Source of the DNA: an uncultured Methanosarcinales archaeon
GTDB lineage: Archaea; Nanobdellota; Nanobdellia; Woesearchaeales; CAZYIM01
NCBI GenBank assembly: GCA_964647565.1
Contig: CAZYIM010000021.1
Location: 1 to 44,947, forward strand
Length of the DNA stretch: 44,947 nt
Reading direction: 5' to 3'
Part shown: in pieces, positions 9,175 to 42,970 of the stretch
How positions within the stretch are numbered: position 1 is the stretch's first letter
Layout: each line of letters begins with the position of its first letter
The notes under the pieces: generated by a model
What the model was told of the DNA's origin: nothing
The model's input: only the letters and a program-made list of their open reading frames with translations
Databases searched by the model: none
Made by a program: the position numbers and the translations under genes

Positions 9175-9522
9175 ATGGTTGATACACCAGAAGAAAAATC
9201 TAATGGACAAGTTCTGAAAGAAAGAGTGACTGATGCATATAAACAATATGCACCGATTGTACAGGAAAAGGCTGGCAAGGCATATAATGCAGGCAGGGAC
9301 TGGTCATTGAAAAACTTCATCAAGTATGAAGGTAAAATAAACAATGATAACAATTGGAAAGGAGCAGGCATAAGCTTCCTTGTTTGTGCTGTTTCAACAG
9401 CTATTCCTGGTCTGAGATTTTTGGAAGTTGCATCAGGAATAACCACAGGTCTTTTTGGTTACCGCGCATTCAAGGATGATAGGGCAACCAGAACAGAGTA
9501 CAATAAGATAAAGATGGATTAA
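9175..9522 (+). CDS. Hypothetical membrane protein
   Basis: GGAGG SD; C-terminal hydrophobic hairpin; T-tract after the stop. Confidence 0.7.
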   Translation: MVDTPEEKSNGQVLKERVTDAYKQYAPIVQEKAGKAYNAGRDWSLKNFIKYEGKINNDNNWKGAGISFLVCAVSTAIPGLRFLEVASGITTGLFGYRAFKDDRATRTEYNKIKMD

Positions 9523-9549
9523 TTCTTTTTTTTTCTTTTTCTTTATTCT

Positions 9550-10425
9550 TTAATGTTCCAAGTTATCATTTAAATACGCATCTAGATCCTGTTGATTTCT
9601 CTCTTGAAAGATCTGTTCATAATGATGCAATCTTTTCTCTAGTCTATTTTTATTACACTGATAACCATGTCCAAAGGATAATAATCCAATCAAACCCGCA
9701 GCCATAACCGTCCTTACAACTCTTCTGTGAGGCTTCGCTATTTGTAATACAATATCTGAGTTAGTATCTTTTTCTTGGAAATCTTTTAATCGTCTCTCAA
9801 GAAAAGATGTATCTACACCTTCGTGCCCTAACTCTCTAATTCCATTTCTTAATGAATTCAACCTTTTTTGAAGTTTTTGTGAAACATTTTCTTTAGATTT
9901 TTCATATTTATCAATTTCATTAACAAGAGTTATCGTGCTATCTATTTTTCCGAGAATATATTCCTCCGCTCTTTCATAATTTTTTTTTACTATTTCTTGT
10001 GCCTTTGCTTCATCAAAATCAACTCTGAGCTCTTGTGCAACTTCTCTGGCATATTTCAAACTTATTTTACCAAAATCTCCGAATTCAAATTCATTTTCCG
10101 GATTATGTTTAGGAGAATATCTCGTAGCTTCGTCTATATACTCTTCAACCCTTTTTTGCCCCTTTGAGTGTCTACAGATTGTTGCTAATCTATGAATATC
10201 TTTTTTCAAGGAACTGGGCAGAGAATATATAGTTCTAACCAGCCTAAATATTATATCAATTTCTGATCTAGCTTCACCTTCTAATGCACATTTTGATAGG
10301 TTCAATAAAACATGTTGTCCTAAAGTTCCTTCATATTCACCTTTTTTTTGCTCAGCTAGGTAACTTAATCCGTCTTCTACTTTCTGAGTCAATTCTGATA
10401 TGTTTGTTTTTCGATTTTCTGCCAT
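9550..10425 (-). CDS. Hypothetical coiled-coil protein with C-terminal TM
   Basis: 291-aa ORF; helical and charged; TM VMAAGLIGLLSFG. Confidence 0.7.
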   Translation of the reverse strand: MAENRKTNISELTQKVEDGLSYLAEQKKGEYEGTLGQHVLLNLSKCALEGEARSEIDIIFRLVRTIYSLPSSLKKDIHRLATICRHSKGQKRVEEYIDEATRYSPKHNPENEFEFGDFGKISLKYAREVAQELRVDFDEAKAQEIVKKNYERAEEYILGKIDSTITLVNEIDKYEKSKENVSQKLQKRLNSLRNGIRELGHEGVDTSFLERRLKDFQEKDTNSDIVLQIAKPHRRVVRTVMAAGLIGLLSFGHGYQCNKNRLEKRLHHYEQIFQERNQQDLDAYLNDNLEH

Positions 10426-10520
10426 TTTGATTACTAGATAGTGGATTCCGTAGAGATATATAAAACTTTGTTGTGGAAAATAAACGACATATTTATATAC
10501 TATTAAATTAAACTAGTTGT

Positions 10521-11210
10521 ATGAAGGAAGAAATACTAAGATCATTGGGTTTAAGCGATAAAGAAATCAAGATTTATCTGGCGAGCCTTCAACTAGGCTC
10601 CAGTTTAGTGCAAAACATAGCTAATTTTGCAGAGTTGAATAGAACTTCTGCCTATGATTTGCTCAAATCGTTAGAACAAAAAGGATTTGTCAGTTATACA
10701 ATTCAATCTGGAAAGCGATTATATCAAGCAACACAACCAAACAAAATCATTGACATGCTAAAAGAAAGAGAAGAATTAGTAAAAAAGATTCTCCCGGAAT
10801 TAAACACTCTTTCTGGAAGTATAGGGAAAAGACCTAAGGTTGAAGTTTATACTGGTAAAGATGGCTTAAAATCCATTTTCGAGAATATACTGATAGAAGC
10901 AAAATCATTTTCTTGCATTGCTTCAAAAAATCAATTATTCAAACTTTTTGAATTCTATTTTCCACACTTTGTAGATAGAAGAAAGAAGAAAGGAATTAAA
11001 GTAAGGATCATCAGTGAAGTCCGGCCTTTTGACAAAACTGCACCTTATAAAATAGTTAAAAAGAAAATTAAAACTGCAACTTGGCTATATAATGAAAAAA
11101 TTGCAATGATTTCTCTAGAAGAAAAAGAGCCGATAGGAATCTTAATTGATGAAAAGAATTATTATGAAACTCACAAAATGATGTTTGATTTACTTTGGGA
11201 AAACATTTAA
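10521..11210 (+). CDS. TrmB-family transcriptional regulator
   Basis: L..LGLS.KE..IY..L wHTH, R.S.Y..L..L..KG.V, VEVY.G..G, F..LW. Confidence 0.9.
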   Translation: MKEEILRSLGLSDKEIKIYLASLQLGSSLVQNIANFAELNRTSAYDLLKSLEQKGFVSYTIQSGKRLYQATQPNKIIDMLKEREELVKKILPELNTLSGSIGKRPKVEVYTGKDGLKSIFENILIEAKSFSCIASKNQLFKLFEFYFPHFVDRRKKKGIKVRIISEVRPFDKTAPYKIVKKKIKTATWLYNEKIAMISLEEKEPIGILIDEKNYYETHKMMFDLLWENI

Positions 11211-12209: not shown

Positions 12210-12956
12210 TCATTTTATCTCTCTTAATCTTGATTTAGGCTGAATTTTCCCCAGTTTCCAGAGCTGTTCGAAATGTTTCCTATAACTATCAGCTAACTCC
12301 CTATTTTTCATCAATACAATTGTAAGGGGTTCCCAAACTAAATTCATAACCCTGTCAGAATACGCCGCTATTGGCGTTGGATCAAAGAATTTATTTGGAA
12401 CAAATCTATATGTTGCAGTTCCAGTATCATAAATGATCTTTGTTTCATCGCTTGTTAAAATTCTTTCCTTTATACCAAGTTCCTTTTGTCTTCTGACATG
12501 TTGACGTATTACTGTTTCAGAAAAAGTCTTGATGAATTTCTCCTCATCAACACCCAACCAAATTAAGTCTGATTTTGTACTTAACATATCTTTTAGAACT
12601 GTTTTAAATCCTTCAATTCCCCTATAAACTTCAACTATCACCTCATCTTGTGAGGATGATCTAATTTTTTTCAGTTCAGGAATAATTTTATTTATTTGAG
12701 AACTCAAATCCTCAACATGTCTGATTAATTTTTCAGGTTCAGTTGCTTGATAATAATTAATATTATTCTTGATAACTGAACTAACAAGCCCTTTATTTAA
12801 TAATTTGTCCAGAAAATCATAAATGGATGTTCGATGAAGTTTAGTTTCTAATTTTATTTTATGAACATTGACAGAGCCCAATTTTAGTAACGCCAAATAT
12901 ACTTTGATTTCTCCATCATTTAATCCAACCTTTTTAAGTACTGTTTGAATGTCCAT
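12210..12956 (-). CDS. TrmB-family transcriptional regulator
   Basis: LKKVGLNDGEIKVYLALL, HRTSIYDFL..L..KGLV, VEVYRG.EG, FEQLW. Confidence 0.9.
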   Translation of the reverse strand: MDIQTVLKKVGLNDGEIKVYLALLKLGSVNVHKIKLETKLHRTSIYDFLDKLLNKGLVSSVIKNNINYYQATEPEKLIRHVEDLSSQINKIIPELKKIRSSSQDEVIVEVYRGIEGFKTVLKDMLSTKSDLIWLGVDEEKFIKTFSETVIRQHVRRQKELGIKERILTSDETKIIYDTGTATYRFVPNKFFDPTPIAAYSDRVMNLVWEPLTIVLMKNRELADSYRKHFEQLWKLGKIQPKSRLREIK

Positions 12957-12986
12957 ATAACTAGAAAAATAACACAGCTTTATAAG

Positions 12987-13008
12987 TGTTGTCATTTTTA
13001 TGACAGCA
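12987..13008. promoter_or_regulatory. Inverted-repeat operator candidate in TrmB divergon
   Basis: TGTTGTCAT-TTTT-ATGACAGCA between two TATA-like boxes. Confidence 0.5.
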
Positions 13009-21720: not shown

Positions 21721-22293
21721 TTATTCTGAGACAATGGTCACAGATTCCATGACAACATCAGTCACAGGTTTGTCACGAGCTCCAGTCTCAGTCACTCCTA
21801 TAGCATCAAGCACATCTTCACCCTCAACAACCTTTCCAAAGACAGCGTGCTTGCCGTCAAGCCATGGTGTGGCTGCCAATGTGATGAAGAACTGTGAGCC
21901 TCCTGAATCAGGACCACTGTTGGCCATTGAAAGAATGCCCTTAGAATCGTGCTTCAAATCAGGATGGAATTCATCCTTGATTGAATAACCTGGGCCGCCT
22001 GTTCCTATTCCATCAGGATCTCCTCCCTGTATCATGAAATTCTTGATCACCCTATGGAAGATCACTCCATTGTAAAACTCTTTCTCTGCAAGATCAATGA
22101 AGTTCTTGGTTGTGATTGGAGCCTTATCCTCGAAAAGCTCGAGTTTCATGGTTCCCATGTTGGTCTTGATAACCGCATATCTATTCATATTATCATCCTC
22201 ATTTGTTGTTCCATCCTGTTCTTCTTCAGTCACATTGTTTGCGCAAGCACTGACCAAAAGAACAGTTATTATTAATAATATTGCCAGTCTCAT
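21721..22293 (-). CDS. Cyclophilin-type peptidyl-prolyl isomerase, lipoprotein-like signal
   Basis: FHRVIKNFMIQGGDP, LSMANSG, GSQFFIT, WLDGKHAVFG; LLVSAC lipobox. Confidence 0.95.
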   Translation of the reverse strand: MRLAILLIITVLLVSACANNVTEEEQDGTTNEDDNMNRYAVIKTNMGTMKLELFEDKAPITTKNFIDLAEKEFYNGVIFHRVIKNFMIQGGDPDGIGTGGPGYSIKDEFHPDLKHDSKGILSMANSGPDSGGSQFFITLAATPWLDGKHAVFGKVVEGEDVLDAIGVTETGARDKPVTDVVMESVTIVSE

Positions 22294-22468
22294 GAATTGC
22301 CCGAAACCCAGACCCATTTTTATAGTTTATTCTTTTTAAACATTAATTTTTCAAGAGAAAGAGTTCGCCCATTGATTTTGAAAATGTTAAAATTTTTTAA
22401 TCTTAAAAACAAAAGCATTATATACTTAGTTTGTTTTCGAGGCAAACAGTTAGGGGGGTTTAGGTATA

Positions 22469-23020
22469 TTGTTCAATAGTATACGTGGCAATTTTATTAA
22501 AATTATTAAAACTAATTATATATTTCTAGCTCTTGTTCTCCTGCTTTTCCTGTCTGCTTGTTCTGAAACCAGGGTTAATTCTGAACAGGTTTTGGAACAA
22601 GAAAATGGTATAAAAAGCCCTTTTGTTGAAGAGGTGCAGGAACTGCTCATAGAAGAAGCAAGCACACAGGAGATTTCTGATGAAGAGGTTGATAAAGTTA
22701 TTGATGATAATCTTGAGTATCTTCAGATGGATAAGGATGACCTGAATCAAAAGCTGGAAGAAGCGGGCCTGACCTACGAACAGTACAGGGAAGAGGTCAG
22801 ATCCCAATTACAGATGGCAAAACTCATACAGGAGAATGTTGACCTGGATGTGGAAGTATCTGTTGAAGAGGTTGACGATTACGTTTCAACATATGAAGAA
22901 GATCTTAAGGACATAATGGATGACCAAGACCTTGAAGTGTTCAAGGCTAAGATACGTAACAGGCTCACAGTAGAGAAACAAAAAGAAAGAGTGATGAAAT
23001 ACGCAGAGAGCCTAAAGTAA
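22469..23020 (+). CDS. SurA/PrsA N-terminal-like chaperone lipoprotein
   Basis: LFLSAC lipobox; LL.EEA...IS.EEVD...L...GLT.E.YRE..R.QL...VS.EEV pattern. Start codon uncertain. Confidence 0.65.
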   Translation: MFNSIRGNFIKIIKTNYIFLALVLLLFLSACSETRVNSEQVLEQENGIKSPFVEEVQELLIEEASTQEISDEEVDKVIDDNLEYLQMDKDDLNQKLEEAGLTYEQYREEVRSQLQMAKLIQENVDLDVEVSVEEVDDYVSTYEEDLKDIMDDQDLEVFKAKIRNRLTVEKQKERVMKYAESLK

Positions 23021-23034
23021 TTATCTGAGGTTGG

Positions 23035-26000
23035 GTGACCATGACCGAAGAAAATAAAACATCACAGATGTGCAATTCCAAGACAATTGGTCTGGCTAAT
23101 AAGAAGTATTTTAACAAGCCAGGAGTCATGCACATCCTTATTCTTTTCCTGATATTTCTTTCATTGATAAATGTGGTGAGTGCACTGGACCCATGGGAGC
23201 TAAAAAAGGCGCATATCGGCGTCATAATTGATCCTGGGCACGGCATGGATTCTGCCTCGGATCCAAACAGCAGTAATAAAACAACTAAAACTAGATATAA
23301 TGTTGGAGGTGCAGTTGGTAGAAGGAATATCCAAGAATGTGATTTTAATACGAACGGCCTTTGGTCAAGACCAGACGGCGGAAAACACTGGTTTAAGAAT
23401 CATACTAACGGCTACATGCGCAGGAATGAAACAGATATTGATTTTGTAGAGCCTGAAGCAAACACATTCTATTCGTTGGCCTTTAAATTGTTACTGGTGG
23501 ACGCCGGAATATTTACAGACTATACCCGTGACTTGGATATAACTTTCAATGAGCTGCGAAACAGCCCATCGCTTGGCATTGGCATGAATAATACAGAGGT
23601 TGATTGGAGGCATGAAGCTCCCAGATATTTTCGCACTAGAAACGATTCAGAACCCTTTAATTTATCACAATCATGGTTTGGTTCTGTTGTAGACAGCCGT
23701 AGAGAATTAGCTAATTGGTATCAAAAGGATAGTCAATACAATATCTCGAAAGATTTTATTTTGATAAGCGTTCACACAGATGCTGACGCTCCTGCAGCTA
23801 CAGGAACCACTGCAATGATTTCAAAGAGGACCAGGGTATGGGGCAACAATGGGGTACCTCCTATAGGAGTTGCCTTAATGCACAACAAGCGGGCTTTGGG
23901 TGAGTATTTGCATAATAGCACTATTGGTGCGATAAGGAGAAGCAATATTGAACCCAACTGGGTCAGTAGACATCCTCTTGCAAATATCAACACTGTTTAT
24001 GAAGGTGAGGGTGGTTATGGCGGGGTGGGGTTGCTGCGCTCACCTATTGTCCCTTCTGCGCTTGTTGAGGTTGGTTTTGCAACAAATTGTGCAAGGGACC
24101 GTCGCACAATATTGAATCTATCAAGACAAGATTCCATTGATACAGTTGGACAAGGTATTTTTGATAGTGTAAAAAGATATTTTAATGCGTCTGTGAACAG
24201 TGTGAACTTATCTGGAAACGGAAGCGATTACTTTCCACTTGGACAGAGATTCTTATATGTTAGAGGAACAGGCTATCCCAGGCCCATACCTTTTAATACA
24301 AATCGAATCGTGAAAATCCATGTCACCAAACATCTAGACTATAATCAAAGCGACAGTGATGTTCCTAATTGGACCAGACTAGTGAAATTCAAAGATGTTG
24401 ATTTTTTTAACATTTCTGCTAAAGTCAATAGGAGCGGGCATTTAATTAACAATACAGGCAATAATGTTGGGATCGTGTCTGTGTTTAAACCTCCCTTTCC
24501 AGGCAAGTTTGACGTTGTTGTTTCTCTTTATAATCATACTCATTTCCATTATGTGGATGCACTAGACAACATGTCTCTAGATGATGAAGTGAAGAGTGTA
24601 CCAGGCTTTGTTGTTCCAGGAGTCTTCCCTGTAAATTCGTCAGAGAACATAACAAAAACCTTCTTTGGCTGGAATAAAGTTAGTTCTGATCTTTATTTCA
24701 AAGCCATGCATCTGCCAAAGGAAACCAATGTTACTGTTTATGTTGTTAAATATGATCCGACCAGAAACTGGAGAGGAAATCCAATCAATCTTGATCAGAT
24801 TAAGATAGTCAATATAACAATTACGACTGATGAAAATGGATCTATAAATACAACTTTGATCTGGAACATTTCCAACTCCAGTGACATGAATGTCTTTAAC
24901 AATAGCGGAAGATTCAATATTGTAGTAGATATAGACAAAGACAAACATTACAACAAATCCCGGGATGTTCTGGATGTTAATGAGATCGGTGTCCTAAAAA
25001 CTGCTAACGGCTTGACACAATTAAATTATAACACTGCTAATGGAAGGCATGCAACTCTGGAATTAAAGGCATTTCTTCATGAGTGGGTGAATTCCAGCCT
25101 TGAAATCAATACAACTTTTGATGCTCTTACAGGCGTAATGCTAAGAAAATATTGGAATTTGAGGAAAATACCTCCTGCAGCCACTAACACATTCGGACCA
25201 AAAACAAATTCCAGAGTGCAATACGATGCAAATATCAGCTTCTTTATTGCTGTTGCAGCAACAGTGAATAAGACCAACAATGTAACCAGATATTTTCCCT
25301 ATACTCGCCAGATTAATGCGACTGCCATGGGCCTTCCGCCGTCTATTGCCGGAGCAAATTCCTTTAATGTCAATGTGACTGCTTATGTTGTGCCCTACAA
25401 CGTCTCTGATGACTGGTCAAAGAATAAAAACTTAGATGATATAAATGTTGCAGTAAAAGAGAAGATTATACTTGACAAAGATGGCGGTTTTACGCAAAAA
25501 CTGATCTGGGAGCCAAAGAATGATGTACAGAAGATCCTGGACAGTAACGGAACCTTTAACCTTGTTGTGGATGTTGACCTGGATAAGCATTATAATGTCA
25601 GCAGGGATATTGTTGACATTGTCGCTTCTGACAATAAATATGGATTCAGGGTCGGTTTTGCAAACACATCTGACGAAAACGGCGTCTTTGATGGTACGCT
25701 TCCGTATGACAGCCCTGTTTATGTAAAAGGAGTCGGCTTTCCAAAAAGAAATGTACACTTATTTGTTGTCAGTAAAGGCGAATGGGCTGAGAATGAGGAT
25801 ATAACAGATCCTATCAATAAGGTTGAGAATGTAGAAATCAAGGCTGATGGCAGGCTGGATAATACCAAGATATGGAATACGCCTGTTAAAGATAATTGTA
25901 ACATAAAATATTATATCATTGTTGATGTGAACCAGGACAATAAATTCAACAAAGAATGGGATGTAATTAGCAGTTTTAACATAATACCGAAGGGTCCGGA

Positions 26001-26586
26001 TGAGGTGTGTGCTGTGGCTAATGCGGCAGATTATGGGGTCCCTCAGAAAAGGAAACGTATTTTTATTATAGGTTCAAAAAAAGGATTTAAAACAAATGAA
26101 CCCAAAAAAACACATTGTCACCCTGATAAATGTGATATTACTGGCCTTCAACCCTATGTTGGTGTTGGTAAAGTAATATCTAAATTTGATAAACCTGAAT
26201 TTTTTGAAAAAGAAGAAATTACTAAAAAAGGAACATATGGACCAGACCTAAAAGAAGTTCCACCTGGAAAAAATTATATTGCTTTAACTGCAAGAAATAA
26301 TTATCCAAATCCTAAATTCGTTGCTGGAAAAAGGTTTTGGAGTTTTTTGCTTAAACTACATCCAGAATTACCTTCTTGGACAATAGCTGCACAACCCGGC
26401 CCGTGGGTAGGACCATTTCATTGGACTTCACGAAGACTAAGAGTGCCTGAGATTGCAGCAATACAAACTTTTCCAGAAAAGTATATCTTTGTTGGTAGCA
26501 GAAGATCTATCCAAAAGCAGATTGGCAACGCAGTCCCACCATTATTAGCACAAAGAATGATTGAATTTTTAAAGGATAACCTATGA
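23035..26586 (+). CDS. Secreted N-acetylmuramoyl-L-alanine amidase (Amidase_3) with beta-rich repeats and PG-binding-like insert, fused in frame to the C-terminal half of a C5 DNA methyltransferase
   Basis: Signal/TM; IIDPGHG, E, ISVHTDA, PSALVEVGF. About four repeats ending FN(I/L)VVD.D.D..(Y/F)N...D. From about 26014: NAADYGVPQKRKR, RRLRVPE, QTFP, KQIGNAVPP. Confidence 0.8.
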   Translation: MTMTEENKTSQMCNSKTIGLANKKYFNKPGVMHILILFLIFLSLINVVSALDPWELKKAHIGVIIDPGHGMDSASDPNSSNKTTKTRYNVGGAVGRRNIQECDFNTNGLWSRPDGGKHWFKNHTNGYMRRNETDIDFVEPEANTFYSLAFKLLLVDAGIFTDYTRDLDITFNELRNSPSLGIGMNNTEVDWRHEAPRYFRTRNDSEPFNLSQSWFGSVVDSRRELANWYQKDSQYNISKDFILISVHTDADAPAATGTTAMISKRTRVWGNNGVPPIGVALMHNKRALGEYLHNSTIGAIRRSNIEPNWVSRHPLANINTVYEGEGGYGGVGLLRSPIVPSALVEVGFATNCARDRRTILNLSRQDSIDTVGQGIFDSVKRYFNASVNSVNLSGNGSDYFPLGQRFLYVRGTGYPRPIPFNTNRIVKIHVTKHLDYNQSDSDVPNWTRLVKFKDVDFFNISAKVNRSGHLINNTGNNVGIVSVFKPPFPGKFDVVVSLYNHTHFHYVDALDNMSLDDEVKSVPGFVVPGVFPVNSSENITKTFFGWNKVSSDLYFKAMHLPKETNVTVYVVKYDPTRNWRGNPINLDQIKIVNITITTDENGSINTTLIWNISNSSDMNVFNNSGRFNIVVDIDKDKHYNKSRDVLDVNEIGVLKTANGLTQLNYNTANGRHATLELKAFLHEWVNSSLEINTTFDALTGVMLRKYWNLRKIPPAATNTFGPKTNSRVQYDANISFFIAVAATVNKTNNVTRYFPYTRQINATAMGLPPSIAGANSFNVNVTAYVVPYNVSDDWSKNKNLDDINVAVKEKIILDKDGGFTQKLIWEPKNDVQKILDSNGTFNLVVDVDLDKHYNVSRDIVDIVASDNKYGFRVGFANTSDENGVFDGTLPYDSPVYVKGVGFPKRNVHLFVVSKGEWAENEDITDPINKVENVEIKADGRLDNTKIWNTPVKDNCNIKYYIIVDVNQDNKFNKEWDVISSFNIIPKGPDEVCAVANAADYGVPQKRKRIFIIGSKKGFKTNEPKKTHCHPDKCDITGLQPYVGVGKVISKFDKPEFFEKEEITKKGTYGPDLKEVPPGKNYIALTARNNYPNPKFVAGKRFWSFLLKLHPELPSWTIAAQPGPWVGPFHWTSRRLRVPEIAAIQTFPEKYIFVGSRRSIQKQIGNAVPPLLAQRMIEFLKDNL

Positions 26587-27647
26587 CAAAAAGAAAACCA
26601 ACTGTAATAAGTATATTCTCAGGTGCGGGTGGTATTGATATCGGCTTTGAGAAAGCAGGATTTAGAATTATTTATTCTACTGATTATTGGGAACCTGCAT
26701 GTAATAGTATGAAAAAGAACAAGATTAGTAATCTTGTTGAATGTAAAGATATTAGAGATGTTGATTTTAAAGCTATTTTGAAAAAAAACAAGCTTAATGA
26801 AATAGATTGCGTAATTGGTGGACCCCCCTGCCCAGCATATTCTAAATCCAGGTTTTATCTTACTCAGAAAAAGAGAGCCTTAGATGATGAAAATGCGTTT
26901 ACACTTTTTGAATACTTTCGAGCCATAAAAGAATTAAAACCTAAAGTCTTTTTTTTTGAGAATGTTCACGGATTTGTTTTTAAACCTCATCTAGCAGCAT
27001 TTAATTTCTTAATGGAAGAATCTGAAAAACTAGGATATGAAATAACGTACAAGGTAGTAAACGCTGCTAACTATGGAGTTCCACAAATCAGAGAGCGATT
27101 CATATGCGTCGGCGTAAAAAAAGGTCAAAGAAAATTTAATTTCCCAGATGAGACTCATTTTAACCCTGATAAAAAAGGAACATTGAACACATTCACAGGT
27201 AAAAAATCTTGGGTGACCTGTAAGGACGTCATTGGAGACTTGGATGTTATTTTACCTGAAGACAAGAATATGCAAGCAGGATCAAAACACAAAAATCTGC
27301 TCAAACAAATTCCTCCCGGACAAAACTATCTATTTTTCACAAAAGAAAGAGGTCATCCTAATCCAAAATTTAAATGGCGTTCTCGATATTGGTCGTTTTT
27401 ATTAAAGCTTTCTCCCGAAAAACCATCTTGGACTATACAAGCAAGTCATTCAAATAATATGGGTCCGTTTCATTGGAAAAACAGATTCTTAAGAATTGCT
27501 GAAATAAAGAGACTACAAACATTTCCTGATGATTATCAGTTTGTAGGAGATTATAGAACACAATGGAGACAAATTGGCAATGCGGTGCCACCATTATTAG
27601 TCCAAAAAATTTCAGAAGCAATAAAAGTCCAATTATTCAGTAATTAA
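26583..27647 (+). CDS. dcm: DNA (cytosine-5)-methyltransferase
   Basis: FSGAGG (motif I), GGPPC (IV), FFFENV (VI), YGVPQ.RER (VIII), RQIGNAVPP (X). Confidence 0.96.
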   Translation: MTKRKPTVISIFSGAGGIDIGFEKAGFRIIYSTDYWEPACNSMKKNKISNLVECKDIRDVDFKAILKKNKLNEIDCVIGGPPCPAYSKSRFYLTQKKRALDDENAFTLFEYFRAIKELKPKVFFFENVHGFVFKPHLAAFNFLMEESEKLGYEITYKVVNAANYGVPQIRERFICVGVKKGQRKFNFPDETHFNPDKKGTLNTFTGKKSWVTCKDVIGDLDVILPEDKNMQAGSKHKNLLKQIPPGQNYLFFTKERGHPNPKFKWRSRYWSFLLKLSPEKPSWTIQASHSNNMGPFHWKNRFLRIAEIKRLQTFPDDYQFVGDYRTQWRQIGNAVPPLLVQKISEAIKVQLFSN

Positions 27648-27834: not shown

Positions 27835-28092
27835 CTAATCAAATAAACCCCTGCTATCAAATCCATGCTCTTTGATCCTTTTATTGATGGCCTGTGTTAT
27901 TTTAACTTTCATATTCTCAGAAAGTTGCCTTTGATTTTTAATAGCTCTGTTTATCACAGATCTATCACAGCCAGCAGCATTTGCAAGCTCATACTGACCT
28001 ATACTAAGCATTTCTAGGATTAGTTCAAGCTTTTTATTATCTGACATTTTAAGAGCCTTATAGAGTTGTTTAGCGTTGACTGGCAAAGTCAT
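27835..28092 (-). CDS. XRE/Cro-like helix-turn-helix protein
   Basis: IGQYELANAAGCDRSVINRAIKNQR. Confidence 0.75.
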   Translation of the reverse strand: MTLPVNAKQLYKALKMSDNKKLELILEMLSIGQYELANAAGCDRSVINRAIKNQRQLSENMKVKITQAINKRIKEHGFDSRGLFD

Positions 28093-28518: not shown

Positions 28519-28932
28519 TTATGAGAAATAAGCATCTTTTATTTCCTTGATAAAGTCCTTAATCTCGGCTAAGACAGCTTCAGCTTCCTTAGCAGATATA
28601 TCTTTACCATAATAATTAATTGCGTTCCTAAGTTTTCTAAAGTTGTCAAAGTTTGATCCGAGCTTTGATGCGTTAAGAATCTCTTTAAGGAAAGCACAAT
28701 AGCACTCATGATTGTAGACCTTAAAGCCTTTTCGTATGGCTAATGCTTCTAAAAGTTCCCTTAATGCATCATAGGACAGGCTTATTTTCGAGGCAGCTGT
28801 TGTATCATCAAGTGGTAGTCTTTCTTGAGTCTTAAACTTGTTTTCAGAGGATTTAAGCAATGCAGATATCAGGTTTTTATCAGTCTTTGCCTGCTTGACA
28901 AGTTTTTTTCGTTTGCATGTTGTCCAATCCAT
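28519..28932 (-). CDS. HEPN-domain protein (toxin of MNT-HEPN pair)
   Basis: Y...RE..EAL...G.K..NHEC; R.LRN.I.YYG (Rx4-6 motif with H replaced by Y); directly downstream of MNT. Confidence 0.8.
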   Translation of the reverse strand: MDWTTCKRKKLVKQAKTDKNLISALLKSSENKFKTQERLPLDDTTAASKISLSYDALRELLEALAIRKGFKVYNHECYCAFLKEILNASKLGSNFDNFRKLRNAINYYGKDISAKEAEAVLAEIKDFIKEIKDAYFS

Positions 28933-28934
28933 GC

Positions 28935-29444
28935 TTACCAACCCCCTACCAGTATCAACCCATCCATGATATTCCTTATGAGCTCTTTGGGAACATCTTC
29001 TTTCTTTGTGAAAACAAATTGCTGGATGGTGCGTCCAAGCTTTTTCTCAAATTTTTCTAGATTAATCTTCTTTTCTGAAGCAGAGAAAATGGCCAGGTCA
29101 ATATCGGAATTCTCGTTTATCTCGGCCTTTGAGAATGAGCCGAAAAGGATTACTAGTGGCTTAACCAACTCTTCTCCAAAGAAATCCGTTAGGCCTGCCT
29201 TTTCAAATATGTAAAGCCAGTATGCTCTCGAGAGGCTGATGAAGAGCTTGTCGTCCTTGTTGGCTGAAAAGTATAGATAGTTCTTTTCAATTTCTCTGAC
29301 CAGTAATCCTTCTTTGTGCAATCTCGAGAGAAATTTAGATGCTGAAGGAGGACTTATCTTGGACAGTCTTGCATATTCTCTAACATTATACCTTTTATAA
29401 TTATCCTCAAAAAAAGGTTTTAAAGTGTTAAATATTTTTAACAT
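28935..29444 (-). CDS. wHTH + minimal nucleotidyltransferase (MNT antitoxin)
   Basis: VREYAR...SPPSASK.L HTH; ILFGSFSK.E...SDIDLAI. Confidence 0.9.
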   Translation of the reverse strand: MLKIFNTLKPFFEDNYKRYNVREYARLSKISPPSASKFLSRLHKEGLLVREIEKNYLYFSANKDDKLFISLSRAYWLYIFEKAGLTDFFGEELVKPLVILFGSFSKAEINENSDIDLAIFSASEKKINLEKFEKKLGRTIQQFVFTKKEDVPKELIRNIMDGLILVGGW

Positions 29445-35887: not shown

Positions 35888-36634
35888 ATGACAGAAAATC
35901 CCTTATATGATCTACTAAAGATAGGCCTGACTGAAGGTGAGGCGAAGGTGTACATTGCAATGATAGAGCTGGGTTCATCCACAGTTGGCCCGATAGTAAA
36001 GAAATCAGGAGTGGCCTACTCGAATGTTTATGATATCCTAAACAGGCTTATGGATAAAGGCGTAGCTACTTATATATTGAAGAGTAAGACAAAATATTTC
36101 CAAGCAGTATCTCCTTCCAACCTCTTAGTGTATCTGGAAAAAAAAGAAGCTGAACTAAATCAGCAAAAGAAAGCTCTTAAAAAGGCATTACCTCAGTTGG
36201 AGAGCTTGCAGGAATTTAAAGCCAAACAAGAGGCTGAAATATTTGTGGGCAAAAAGGGGTTAAGAGCTGCATATGAGAAACTCTTTACAACTGTAAACAA
36301 AGACGAAGAAGATCTTTTTTTCTATATCTACCATCCTGAATACGGAAAGGAAGCTGACCTTTTTTATTTAAGTATCCAGGAGATCATAAAAAAATTACCA
36401 ATCAGGGGGATCTCAAACACAGAGGGTAGGGAATCTTTGTTTGCACAGTCAGTTGATTTTATCAGATATAGATTTGTTGATTTTCCCATTCCAGGCAATC
36501 TTGAGGTGTGTGGTGATAAGACGCTGTTTGTGTCCTGGGAAAAGCCAACCATCGGAGTACTCATTACATCCAAGAGCATCGCAGATAACCTGCGTAACTA
36601 TTTCGATACTGTTTGGGTTATTGCCAAAGAATAG
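35888..36634 (+). CDS. TrmB-family transcriptional regulator
   Basis: L.KIGLT.GEAKVY, S.VY.IL..L..KG, EIF.G..G, YFD..W. Confidence 0.9.
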   Translation: MTENPLYDLLKIGLTEGEAKVYIAMIELGSSTVGPIVKKSGVAYSNVYDILNRLMDKGVATYILKSKTKYFQAVSPSNLLVYLEKKEAELNQQKKALKKALPQLESLQEFKAKQEAEIFVGKKGLRAAYEKLFTTVNKDEEDLFFYIYHPEYGKEADLFYLSIQEIIKKLPIRGISNTEGRESLFAQSVDFIRYRFVDFPIPGNLEVCGDKTLFVSWEKPTIGVLITSKSIADNLRNYFDTVWVIAKE

Positions 36635-41631: not shown

Positions 41632-42005
41632 TTTATTTTACCTCTCATAGTTTTTTTTTCAAGTGTTACTGATCCGTCTCGGATATCTGTTAAATAGGGG
41701 GTTTTTGGATCTATGTCCTCTAAAGATCTTATTTTATACCTGAATTTACCTTCATACTTGATTCGCCCATCGTCAAGTTCTATCTTTTTATATTCCTCGC
41801 CAGCTATCTTCTCTATCTCAACTACATCTCCTTTAGTGGGGATCTGATGTTCATCTATCACATAGCCCTGCTCTGTTTCGCTAAATCCGATTGGAGTTTC
41901 AGGCGCATCCCTGATCCCGTCATAAAGCACTGCACCCAAGCCGCCTAACATAATGACTATTGAGAGTGTGCATCCGATTTTTCTGATGTTTTTTGATAGT
42001 TTCAT
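41628..42005 (-). CDS. Hypothetical membrane-anchored protein
   Basis: N-terminal TM; coupled to the downstream gene. Confidence 0.7.
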   Translation of the reverse strand: MKLSKNIRKIGCTLSIVIMLGGLGAVLYDGIRDAPETPIGFSETEQGYVIDEHQIPTKGDVVEIEKIAGEEYKKIELDDGRIKYEGKFRYKIRSLEDIDPKTPYLTDIRDGSVTLEKKTMRGKIK

Positions 42006-42062
42006 TTGTTTCACATCTTTTATTACTATATAATAATAACTTTTCAAATATTAATATCTTTC

Positions 42063-42089
42063 TGATATTATTGATATCATTGATATTAA
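42063..42089. promoter_or_regulatory. Three tandem 9-bp repeats (TGATAT core) in divergon
   Basis: TGATATTAT-TGATATCAT-TGATATTAA. Confidence 0.45.
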
Positions 42090-42130
42090 AATCGAAATAT
42101 TTAAATAGTATTAAAGCTATTATAACAATC

Positions 42131-42970
42131 ATGAAACGCAAACTGATCAAACAGGGCGGAGGAGGCTTGACCTTCTATGTGCCCAAGAAATGGACAGACA
42201 AGCAGAACCTTAAGGCTGGAGACGAACTTAACATCCAAGAATCGGACAACGAACTGCATATATCTGCCCAAGACAAGACCAAGCAGCTCAAAGAACTTAC
42301 TGTTAAAATCGCCAAAGAAAACAAAAACAGGATAAGAACAATAATCTCTTCTGCGTACAGACGGGGTTATGATCAGATATATCTGGTTACAGAGCATGAT
42401 ATGTCCCTAGTTGAGATAAATCATATTGTTGATACACTCCTTGGCTTTGTGGTCACAGAGCAGACAGAGAAGCGTATTGTCATCAAGAATATCATGGCAG
42501 ACAACTTTGAGGATACAGACGCTATAATCAACAAATTGTTCATAACCATCAAATTCTTCATGCAGGCTGTCATAGACTATATCGAGTCAGGTGGTAAAGA
42601 TTCGGAGTTAATAGAGCTTAGCAAGTCTATAATCAAATTGAGGGATTATAGCCAGAGAATGATACATATCACAGAACATGGCGACGATAGATCCTATGAA
42701 TATCATACACTCGTATTCGTTGCTGAGAAGCTCGCAGGCAACTTCAAGCAGTTAATTCGTAATAAGCCCAAGAACAAGAAAGATTGCTTGAAAGAGCTGG
42801 ATCTTGTCTATGATTACTTTTCTACTCTCTTTGAGGCATATCTCAAAAGAAAAATTGAGTCAGTCATAAACATAAATAAAGAGCTGAACAAGAAAACAAA
42901 AGAGAACGATTGTGTAATGTTAGAAAACCTCTTCAGCATTTCTTCAAGACTGATCAGCATCCTGATCTAG
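42131..42970 (+). CDS. AbrB/MazE + PhoU-like regulator
   Basis: MKRKLIKQG...YVPKKW...L..GDEL; AYRRGYD, LLGF, DY..R, EKLA. Paralog of 836..1708. Confidence 0.85.
   Translation: MKRKLIKQGGGGLTFYVPKKWTDKQNLKAGDELNIQESDNELHISAQDKTKQLKELTVKIAKENKNRIRTIISSAYRRGYDQIYLVTEHDMSLVEINHIVDTLLGFVVTEQTEKRIVIKNIMADNFEDTDAIINKLFITIKFFMQAVIDYIESGGKDSELIELSKSIIKLRDYSQRMIHITEHGDDRSYEYHTLVFVAEKLAGNFKQLIRNKPKNKKDCLKELDLVYDYFSTLFEAYLKRKIESVININKELNKKTKENDCVMLENLFSISSRLISILI

Follow-up and report, generated by a model that had tools for sequence, protein, structure and literature searches.

The window analysed here is the whole of contig CAZYIM010000021.1 (C21; 44,947 nucleotides), one of 86 contigs in a 2.68-Mb assembly that is 86.9% complete and 1.85% contaminated. 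On its forward strand lies a 1183-amino-acid (aa) open reading frame (ORF) in which a predicted surface amidase protein, built from a divergent Amidase_3 domain and a series of beta repeats, is fused in frame to a fragment of a cytosine DNA methylase. The features of this ORF and of the methylase gene that follows it are given below in window coordinates.

23035..26586, + strand: predicted surface amidase protein that continues in frame into a methylase fragment; single ORF, 1183 aa
23128..23184, + strand: signal-peptide-like hydrophobic stretch, residues about 32-50, read from the sequence; ends in VSA before LDPWE
23185..24192, + strand: catalytic domain of divergent Amidase_3 type, residues 51-386; two insertions specific to the family; assigned from Pfam, PDB, the family alignment and Foldseek
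24220..24600, + strand: beta repeat 1, residues 396-522; divergent, without the DxDxD motif
24601..24999, + strand: beta repeat 2, residues 523-655; motif IVVDIDKDKHY; AlphaFold2 (AF2) beta strands with a predicted local distance difference test score (pLDDT) of 56-82
25042..25239, + strand: PG_binding_1-like three-helix insert, residues 670-735; from the alignment of relatives and AF2, with no direct Pfam match
25240..25686, + strand: beta repeat 3, residues 736-884; motif LVVDVDLDKHY
25687..25989, + strand: beta repeat 4, residues 885-985; motif IIVDVNQDNKF; no sequons
26014..26031, + strand: junction zone, residues V994-D999, where similarity to the relative P0001 stops and similarity to Dcm starts
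26011..26586, + strand: 5'-truncated C5 cytosine methylase fragment, covering PF00145 profile positions 140-320 of 324; N-terminal ~157 residues missing
26583..27647, + strand: full-length C5 DNA methylase (Dcm), 217 bits; overlaps the end of the fused ORF, start and stop codons sharing ATGA

The ORF starts at 23035 with GTG, and an ATG at 23041 is preceded by a GAGGT motif. The initial annotation had ended the gene at 25990, where no stop codon is found; the frame continues to 26586 as a C5 DNA methylase fragment. Pfam gives two families in the ORF, Amidase_3 at residues 238-365 and DNA_methylase at residues 993-1177.

The four Amidase_3 motifs noticed when the locus was first annotated are all in place: DPGHG (residues 66-70), EPE (139-141), SVHTDA (245-250) and LVEVGF (343-348). 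When the protein was scanned with the PF01520 profile it scored 27.1 bits, the cut-off being 27. The score is weak because the domain carries two family-specific insertions, one of ~70 residues between DPGHG and EPE and one of ~45 residues before the ISxH motif, the latter with a conserved NDWR motif. Relatives of the protein score 47.3, 32.7, 53.5 and 37.5 bits, and a 2876-aa relative from a Woesearchaeota genome (L006, below) has no PF01520 match at E ≤ 0.001. In the alignment of five family sequences, H69, E139, E141, H247 and E345 are invariant. The Zn site of Amidase_3, as in CwlV and AmiC, is formed by His/Glu/His; the proposed ligands are H69, E139 or E141, and H247, with E345 as the proposed catalytic residue. 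In CwlV and AmiB, the GH motif aligns with H69 and the SxH motif with H247, E139 and E141 both precede the expected helix, and E345 in LVEVGF aligns with LVETGF in AmiB, LVETAF in AmiC and LLEVGY in CwlV.

Structural comparisons pointed to the same enzymes. All four PDB matches of the protein itself are murein amidases (E 0.0013 to 0.66), as are all nine matches of the family profile (best E 3.4e-8), and the DPGH, ISxH and LVExGF motifs align to the same motifs in AmiB, AmiC and CwlV. An AF2 model of the amidase domain was built from a shallow alignment (mean pLDDT 46.8, predicted template-modelling score 0.57). Every one of the 21 Foldseek rows listed for it at ranks 1-24 is an Amidase_3 enzyme or a protein containing the domain; the target-normalised TM score of this low-confidence model was 0.40-0.60 for most of them, and 10 had E ≤ 0.001.

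Relatives were sought with phmmer among 1.84 billion cluster representatives. Searched exhaustively at E ≤ 1e-3, these returned 31 proteins, 6 of them touching the amidase region. Five of these are credible amidase-domain relatives. The sixth, P0030, is a BspA-type leucine-rich repeat protein matched at E 6e-4 over query residues 318-469 and was treated as spurious. Ordinary bacterial amidases (short Amidase_3 members) did not appear in the phmmer results at this threshold. P0001 (2407 aa, metagenomic) is 44% identical to the window protein over residues 26-981 and then continues with more repeats and a Phosphodiest domain. P0026 (484 aa, metagenomic) carries Laminin_G_3, He_PIG and DUF11; its amidase is not N-terminal, because the amidase head, PWEWKKEHIGVVIDPGHG, begins in the last 38 residues, where the record ends. 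The remaining phmmer relatives share only the repeat and PG_binding_1 modules and carry S8 or C11 proteases, TSP_3 and Laminin_G_3.

A scan of one genome per species placed the family in two named DPANN metagenome-assembled genomes (MAGs), one from Micrarchaeota and one from Woesearchaeota. The Micrarchaeota MAG (JACRGB010000017; L005 7974-11681) has tandem paralogues, one of 494 aa and one of 738 aa. The longer has a GH19-like domain at its C-terminus (class II chitinase 1dxj matched at E 6e-4, with phage endolysins in weaker rows), which suggests a two-enzyme, lysin-like layout. The shorter is a natural form made up of signal, amidase and one repeat, and the N-terminal head module can therefore stand alone. 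In the Woesearchaeota MAG (JAGVZD010000003; L006), the 2876-aa protein has a Phosphodiest domain and is encoded beside archaeal S13-S4-RpoD. A metagenome scan found one locus, which is not independent of L006 because its gene order and ORF lengths are the same. Within the order, residues 1-985 gave no match in 40 relatives, and the amidase profile matched 2 of 401 genomes, counting the window's own; the sample of 400 other genomes spans more than 130 families. A word-index search among near lengths with residues 31-520 gave no match, which is a limit of the index, as the exhaustive search did find relatives. No published description of this amidase family was found in the literature searched on archaeal and Woesearchaeota amidases and on DPANN giant surface proteins.

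About four beta-rich repeats with D.D.D loops had been described in the initial annotation. This description fits repeats 2, 3 and 4, which are interrelated (pairwise E of 1e-22, 2e-11 and 5e-6) and each contain the motif [VIL]3-D-x-[DN]-x-[DN]-x-x-[YF]. It does not fit repeat 1, whose similarity is weak (E 0.04) and which has no such motif. Repeat 1 adjoins the amidase domain, an arrangement conserved in P0001, P0005, P0007 and P0009.

The segment at 25042-25209 had been likened to a degenerate PG_binding_1 domain, and this likeness was recovered through relatives, not in the segment itself. PF01471 had no match in the insert at E ≤ 10 when the piece was excised, nor at E ≤ 0.01 in the alignment scan and the whole-genome scan. 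The insert does align column for column with the modules of relatives: PF01471 is matched by 4 of 7 aligned sequences (best E 7.2e-11; P0001 scores 19.5 bits), and BLASTP alignments pass through the module in P0011 and P0006. A profile of the insert alignment matched the PG-binding domain of 1lbu weakly in the PDB (E 0.036). The AF2 model of the repeats and insert (mean pLDDT 50.9) places helices at residues 670-686, 697-709 and 722-734 (model positions 150-166, 177-189 and 202-214), with pLDDT below 60. Foldseek with this model returned generic immunoglobulin (Ig)-like adhesin domains only, none at E ≤ 0.001. We infer a PG-binding module here via the relatives only.

The N-terminus begins with a hydrophobic stretch, ILILFLIFLSLINVVSA, followed by LDPWELKK. 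It agrees with the signal or membrane segment of the initial annotation, being signal-like and ending in VSA before LDPW, as read from the sequence. P0001, P0005, P0007 and the L006 protein share this layout and a mature N-terminus of the form (D/E)PWExK..HIGV, and a signal-like N-terminus of this layout is found in all relatives that possess an N-terminus. The high density of N-x-S/T sequons also reported there was borne out by shuffling: residues 56-985 contain 41, against 12.9 ± 3.2 expected (2000 shuffles, maximum 25). The amidase domain has 13 sequons and the methylase part 0. The genome's other giant ORFs are just as rich in sequons, with up to 7.2 per 100 aa, and the genome encodes an STT3/AglB oligosaccharyltransferase, which among the control genomes was matched only in the four archaeal controls.

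Across the assembly there are 42 open frames of at least 1000 aa, several of them very rich in sequons. Examples are a frame of 5053 aa on contig C26 (5.7 per 100 aa) and one of 1236 aa on contig C3 (7.2 per 100 aa).

Similarity to P0001 extends to about residue 999 and similarity to Dcm runs from residue 994. The join thus lies at about 26014-26031, possibly within a short stretch that fits both sides. The break coincides with a domain boundary, just past the point where repeat 4 ends. The methylase fragment matches residues 158-351 of the downstream Dcm at 47% identity and lacks the full motif set of a C5 cytosine DNA methyltransferase (N-terminal S-adenosylmethionine-binding motif and catalytic Pro-Cys). 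No separate N-terminal methylase half was found elsewhere in the genome, the PF00145 genome scan giving 2 matches, both at the amidase locus. The junction is bridged without mismatches by contigs from public sequencing runs (X1 over 25894-26044; X2 and X4 over 25852-26132), which were assembled independently from marine or seawater runs of two studies at a low depth of ~4. No alternative joint or loose end was present among the bridging contigs, although contigs drop rare variants, so an intact allele may exist in the population. We take the junction to reflect a genuine deletion or insertion and not an error of scaffolding.

The G+C content (GC) drops to 0.34-0.35 between about 26000 and 29500. 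This low-GC stretch contains the dcm fragment, the full dcm gene, a Cro-like helix-turn-helix gene, and a nucleotidyltransferase gene next to a small one; the last three lie as follows.

27835..28092, - strand: Cro-like helix-turn-helix gene
28519..28941, - strand: 140-aa gene, overlapping the next
28935..29444, - strand: nucleotidyltransferase gene

The nucleotidyltransferase gene and the 140-aa gene look like a toxin-antitoxin pair of the MNT/HEPN type. No restriction enzyme was recognised in the low-GC stretch, and no direct or inverted repeats mark the ends of this methylase island.

Residues 16-958 of P0001 align to the window protein, and the remainder of P0001 has no counterpart anywhere in the assembly. 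The window copy is a truncated remnant, because its relatives span 2407-2876 aa, including a further 1400-1900 residues with Phosphodiest (PF01663). What is left is the N-terminal ~40% of the 2407-2876-aa architecture. In the reading preferred here, a deletion or insertion at the low-GC methylase island took away the distal part and left the frame running on into the C-terminal half of a dcm gene.

A gene with such a history could be an inactive relic, that is, a pseudogene decaying since the methylase island deleted the distal 1400-1900 codons, with a product that is not made, exported or folded and motifs that are intact because the event was recent. The copy is indeed shorter than the L006 protein (2876 aa) and P0001 (2407 aa), it continues in frame into a methylase fragment without its N-terminal half, the genome contains no match to the remaining architecture, and the GC of 0.34-0.35 sets in just downstream. 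Yet 985 codons are free of stops and frameshifts with every catalytic position kept, the natural 494-aa form in the Micrarchaeota MAG indicates that the N-terminal module can stand alone, and the break respects the domain boundary after repeat 4. We consider a relic unlikely.

The reading we prefer, and hold to be moderately probable from the predicted features, is that of a Sec-exported, N-glycosylated surface or secreted protein, made by a marine archaeon with a small genome of DPANN type, whose amidase acts on bacterial murein. The first domain would be a zinc amidase of the Amidase_3 fold, most likely cutting the amide bond between N-acetylmuramic acid (MurNAc) and L-Ala in bacterial peptidoglycan. 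Four Ig-like beta-sandwich repeats would form a stalk or adhesive spacer, and the DxDxD loops of three of them may bind calcium. The PG_binding_1-like three-helix module, placed between repeats 2 and 3, would keep the enzyme attached to murein. The truncated protein may still be produced and active.

The genome gave one Mur-ligase match and no penicillin-binding protein match at 87% completeness. It encodes an SLT protein of 823 aa whose N-terminus carries a hydrophobic anchor (SLT 46 bits; contig C24 35679-38150, L022 832-3303) and a 717-aa Peptidase_M23 protein (32.4 bits; contig C8, L023 1003-3156, - strand). A bacterial-wall target is the most economical reading because the catalytic residues are kept, there is one Mur-ligase match and no penicillin-binding protein match, and SLT and M23 domains are present. 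The initial annotation had proposed a domesticated enzyme directed at bacteria. That proposal gains from the archaeal setting, the catalytic residues and the SLT and M23 proteins, and loses by the truncation of the gene and by a PG-binding module seen via relatives only.

Several observations weigh against an active, murein-directed surface enzyme. The Pfam score of the amidase domain sits at the cut-off, and in the six-frame genome scan (21.2 bits) it falls below. The second Zn ligand was placed by position and conservation, not by alignment to a solved amidase, and the fold matches are merely indicative because both AF2 models are of low confidence (mean pLDDT 46.8 and 50.9). PG_binding_1 is undetectable in the window sequence itself, and this fold is also found in proteins that do not bind murein. 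The protein ends in ~190 residues of a cytoplasmic enzyme without a recognisable anchor, so the fused product may be misfolded or decaying. With 1 of 400 other same-order genomes matching the amidase profile, and that one weakly, the gene is not a core trait. The bridging runs may include the source sample of the window, and run pairs may be one data set; none of the listed sequencing runs that contain the locus is an RNA run.

The amidase might also have another substrate, such as free muropeptides taken as food, pseudomurein in the wall of a host methanogen, or a glycoconjugate with an amide linkage from another archaeon or a eukaryote. Its domain is far from canonical Amidase_3, having two large insertions and no ordinary bacterial amidase among its phmmer matches at E ≤ 1e-3, and the PG_binding_1 signal is absent from the window copy. 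Full-length relatives add a phosphodiesterase and related giants add S8 and C11 proteases, which would fit a general degradative role. Against this, all structural and profile matches are murein amidases, SLT and M23 occur in the same genome, and the locus was seen in metagenomes of marine or seawater origin. In such settings methanogens with pseudomurein walls should not be common, which weighs against pseudomurein as the substrate. A target other than bacterial murein seems quite improbable.

The archaeal setting assumed in the initial annotation holds. The small-subunit ribosomal RNA of the genome scores 1405 bits with the archaeal model versus 1048 bits with the bacterial model, STT3/AglB is present, and relatives of the protein occur in Micrarchaeota and Woesearchaeota MAGs. 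The genome's archaeal S13-S4-S11-RpoD cluster is 43-67% identical to that of the named Woesearchaeota MAG. The tetranucleotide profile of the contig correlates with the other large contigs at r = 0.994, the same value as for the contigs that carry the 16S and the ribosomal proteins. For the gene segment alone, r is 0.846 versus 0.904 ± 0.073 for 3-kb pieces elsewhere in the genome; gammaproteobacterial loci give 0.37-0.58. The 40 listed members of the order have genomes of 0.6-2.1 Mb, and this assembly, 87% complete, measures 2.68 Mb. A DPANN lineage is probable, given the small genomes of the order and the named relatives.

Bacterial contamination or a chimeric contig, with the amidase gene mis-binned or mis-joined, might be suspected from Amidase_3 matches in 8 bacterial and 0 archaeal control genomes and from two flanking genes that cannot anchor the contig because they are essentially unmatched in 40 order relatives, but it is very unlikely given the archaeal markers, the tetranucleotide match of contig (0.994) and gene segment (0.846, against 0.37-0.58 for proteobacterial loci) and a sequon excess like that of the genome's other giant ORFs, and further points against it are the homologues in DPANN MAGs (one beside an archaeal S13-S4-RpoD operon), three TrmB regulators in the window and the bridging of the junction in public-run contigs.

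The three TrmB-family regulators of the window lie at 10521-11210, 12210-12995 and 35888-36634. A MazE/AbrB-like domain occurs in two larger window proteins, at 836-1729 and 41993-42970. No tRNA or Rfam matches were found within the window.

Two genes upstream of the amidase gene have features of extracytoplasmic folding factors.

21721..22317, - strand: cyclophilin-type peptidyl-prolyl isomerase (PPIase), 184 bits; N-terminal hydrophobic stretch and lipobox-like LLVSAC
22469..23020, + strand: SurA_N-like gene, 183 aa; lipobox-like LFLSAC; SurA_N 28.2 bits, below the cut-off of 30.8

The SurA_N-like protein shares 28% identity over 116 aa (E 1e-8) with the product of the SurA_N-like gene directly upstream of the L006 homologue. 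It is a possible extracytoplasmic chaperone partner, and this conserved gene may aid the folding or export of the amidase protein. The PPIase gene is divergent from the SurA_N-like gene and adjoins it, so that the giant surface-protein gene has two predicted extracytoplasmic folding factors next to it. On contig C5 of the assembly, a 468-aa frame (about 9335-10738, - strand) contains another SurA_N-like match, which is 26% identical to the SurA_N-like protein of L006 and has no giant ORF adjacent.

A broader proposal goes beyond the preferred reading, and we put it forward tentatively, as possible but doubtful. It holds that this Amidase_3 clade is the N-terminal cutting head of DPANN-specific giant glycosylated multi-enzyme surface proteins, joined with a PG-binding module and a phosphodiesterase and served by a dedicated SurA-like chaperone, which would open bacterial walls for archaea of the Woesearchaeota and Micrarchaeota types. 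Some marine DPANN archaea would then live on bacterial hosts, not on archaeal ones, and the head would have stayed useful after the methylase-island cut.

DPANN archaea are thought to be cell-dependent, their partners are mostly unknown, and murein-cutting enzymes are among the few genomic clues to bacterial partners. The locus adds a rare, highly divergent amidase family that would largely escape Pfam-based surveys, and it shows a mobile methylase island shortening a giant surface-protein gene with the frame kept open. The idea of murein degradation by archaea, DPANN included, is already published, so no new question is opened; the family would be a divergent addition to it, with a predicted activity.

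Modular peptidoglycan hydrolases have been reported in 175 of 3706 archaeal genomes and called prominent in Nanoarchaeota, and two haloarchaeal M23 enzymes kill a bacterium (Strock et al. 2025, PLoS Biol, PMC12352652). The definition used there demands Pfam matches for a catalytic and a binding domain, with Amidase_3 among the catalytic domains (S10 Table). Judged by the parts of that report considered here, the window protein is predicted to resemble these hydrolases in combining a murein-cleaving domain, a wall-binding module and a signal peptide, and in its patchy distribution and archaeal origin. It falls outside the definition, with Amidase_3 borderline and no binding domain detected, and such a survey would probably miss it because Amidase_3 lies at the cut-off and PG_binding_1 is undetected. 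The enzymes tested in those parts of the report are haloarchaeal M23 peptidases, unlike an amidase on an Ig-like stalk.

GH23 transglycosylases have been described in Woesearchaeota, and predation on bacteria was proposed for them (Vigneron et al. 2022, PMC9723730, where the AR20 genome is cited). In the sections of that article drawn on here, these GH23/SLT proteins are, like the window protein, large exported DPANN proteins read as degraders of bacterial walls, and the present genome has its own 823-aa SLT protein. The two types are non-homologous: the amidase would cut the peptide stem from MurNAc, whereas the transglycosylase cuts the glycan strand.

With the bacterial Amidase_3 enzymes of cell separation and sporulation (AmiA/B/C, 8c2o, 8c0j and 4bin; CwlV, 1jwq; CwlD, 7rag and 4rn7; Ami1/Rv3717, 4lq6 and 7agl), the window domain has in common the predicted fold, the Zn-site motifs and the position of the catalytic Glu. 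No autoinhibitory helix of the AmiB/AmiC type was recognised, without a proper test for one. It differs from them in its Foldseek identity of 11-15%, its insertions of ~70 and ~45 residues, the family-conserved PWExKxxHIGV and NDWR motifs, its 13 sequons and its N-terminal place on a multi-repeat glycoprotein. P0001 and the L006 protein are true homologues, with the amidase, repeats and PG_binding_1-like insert in the same order as in the window protein, and the L006 locus shares the SurA_N-like upstream gene with the window. Both homologues continue for 1400-1900 residues that include Phosphodiest (PF01663), whereas the window copy stops past repeat 4 and reads into the dcm fragment.

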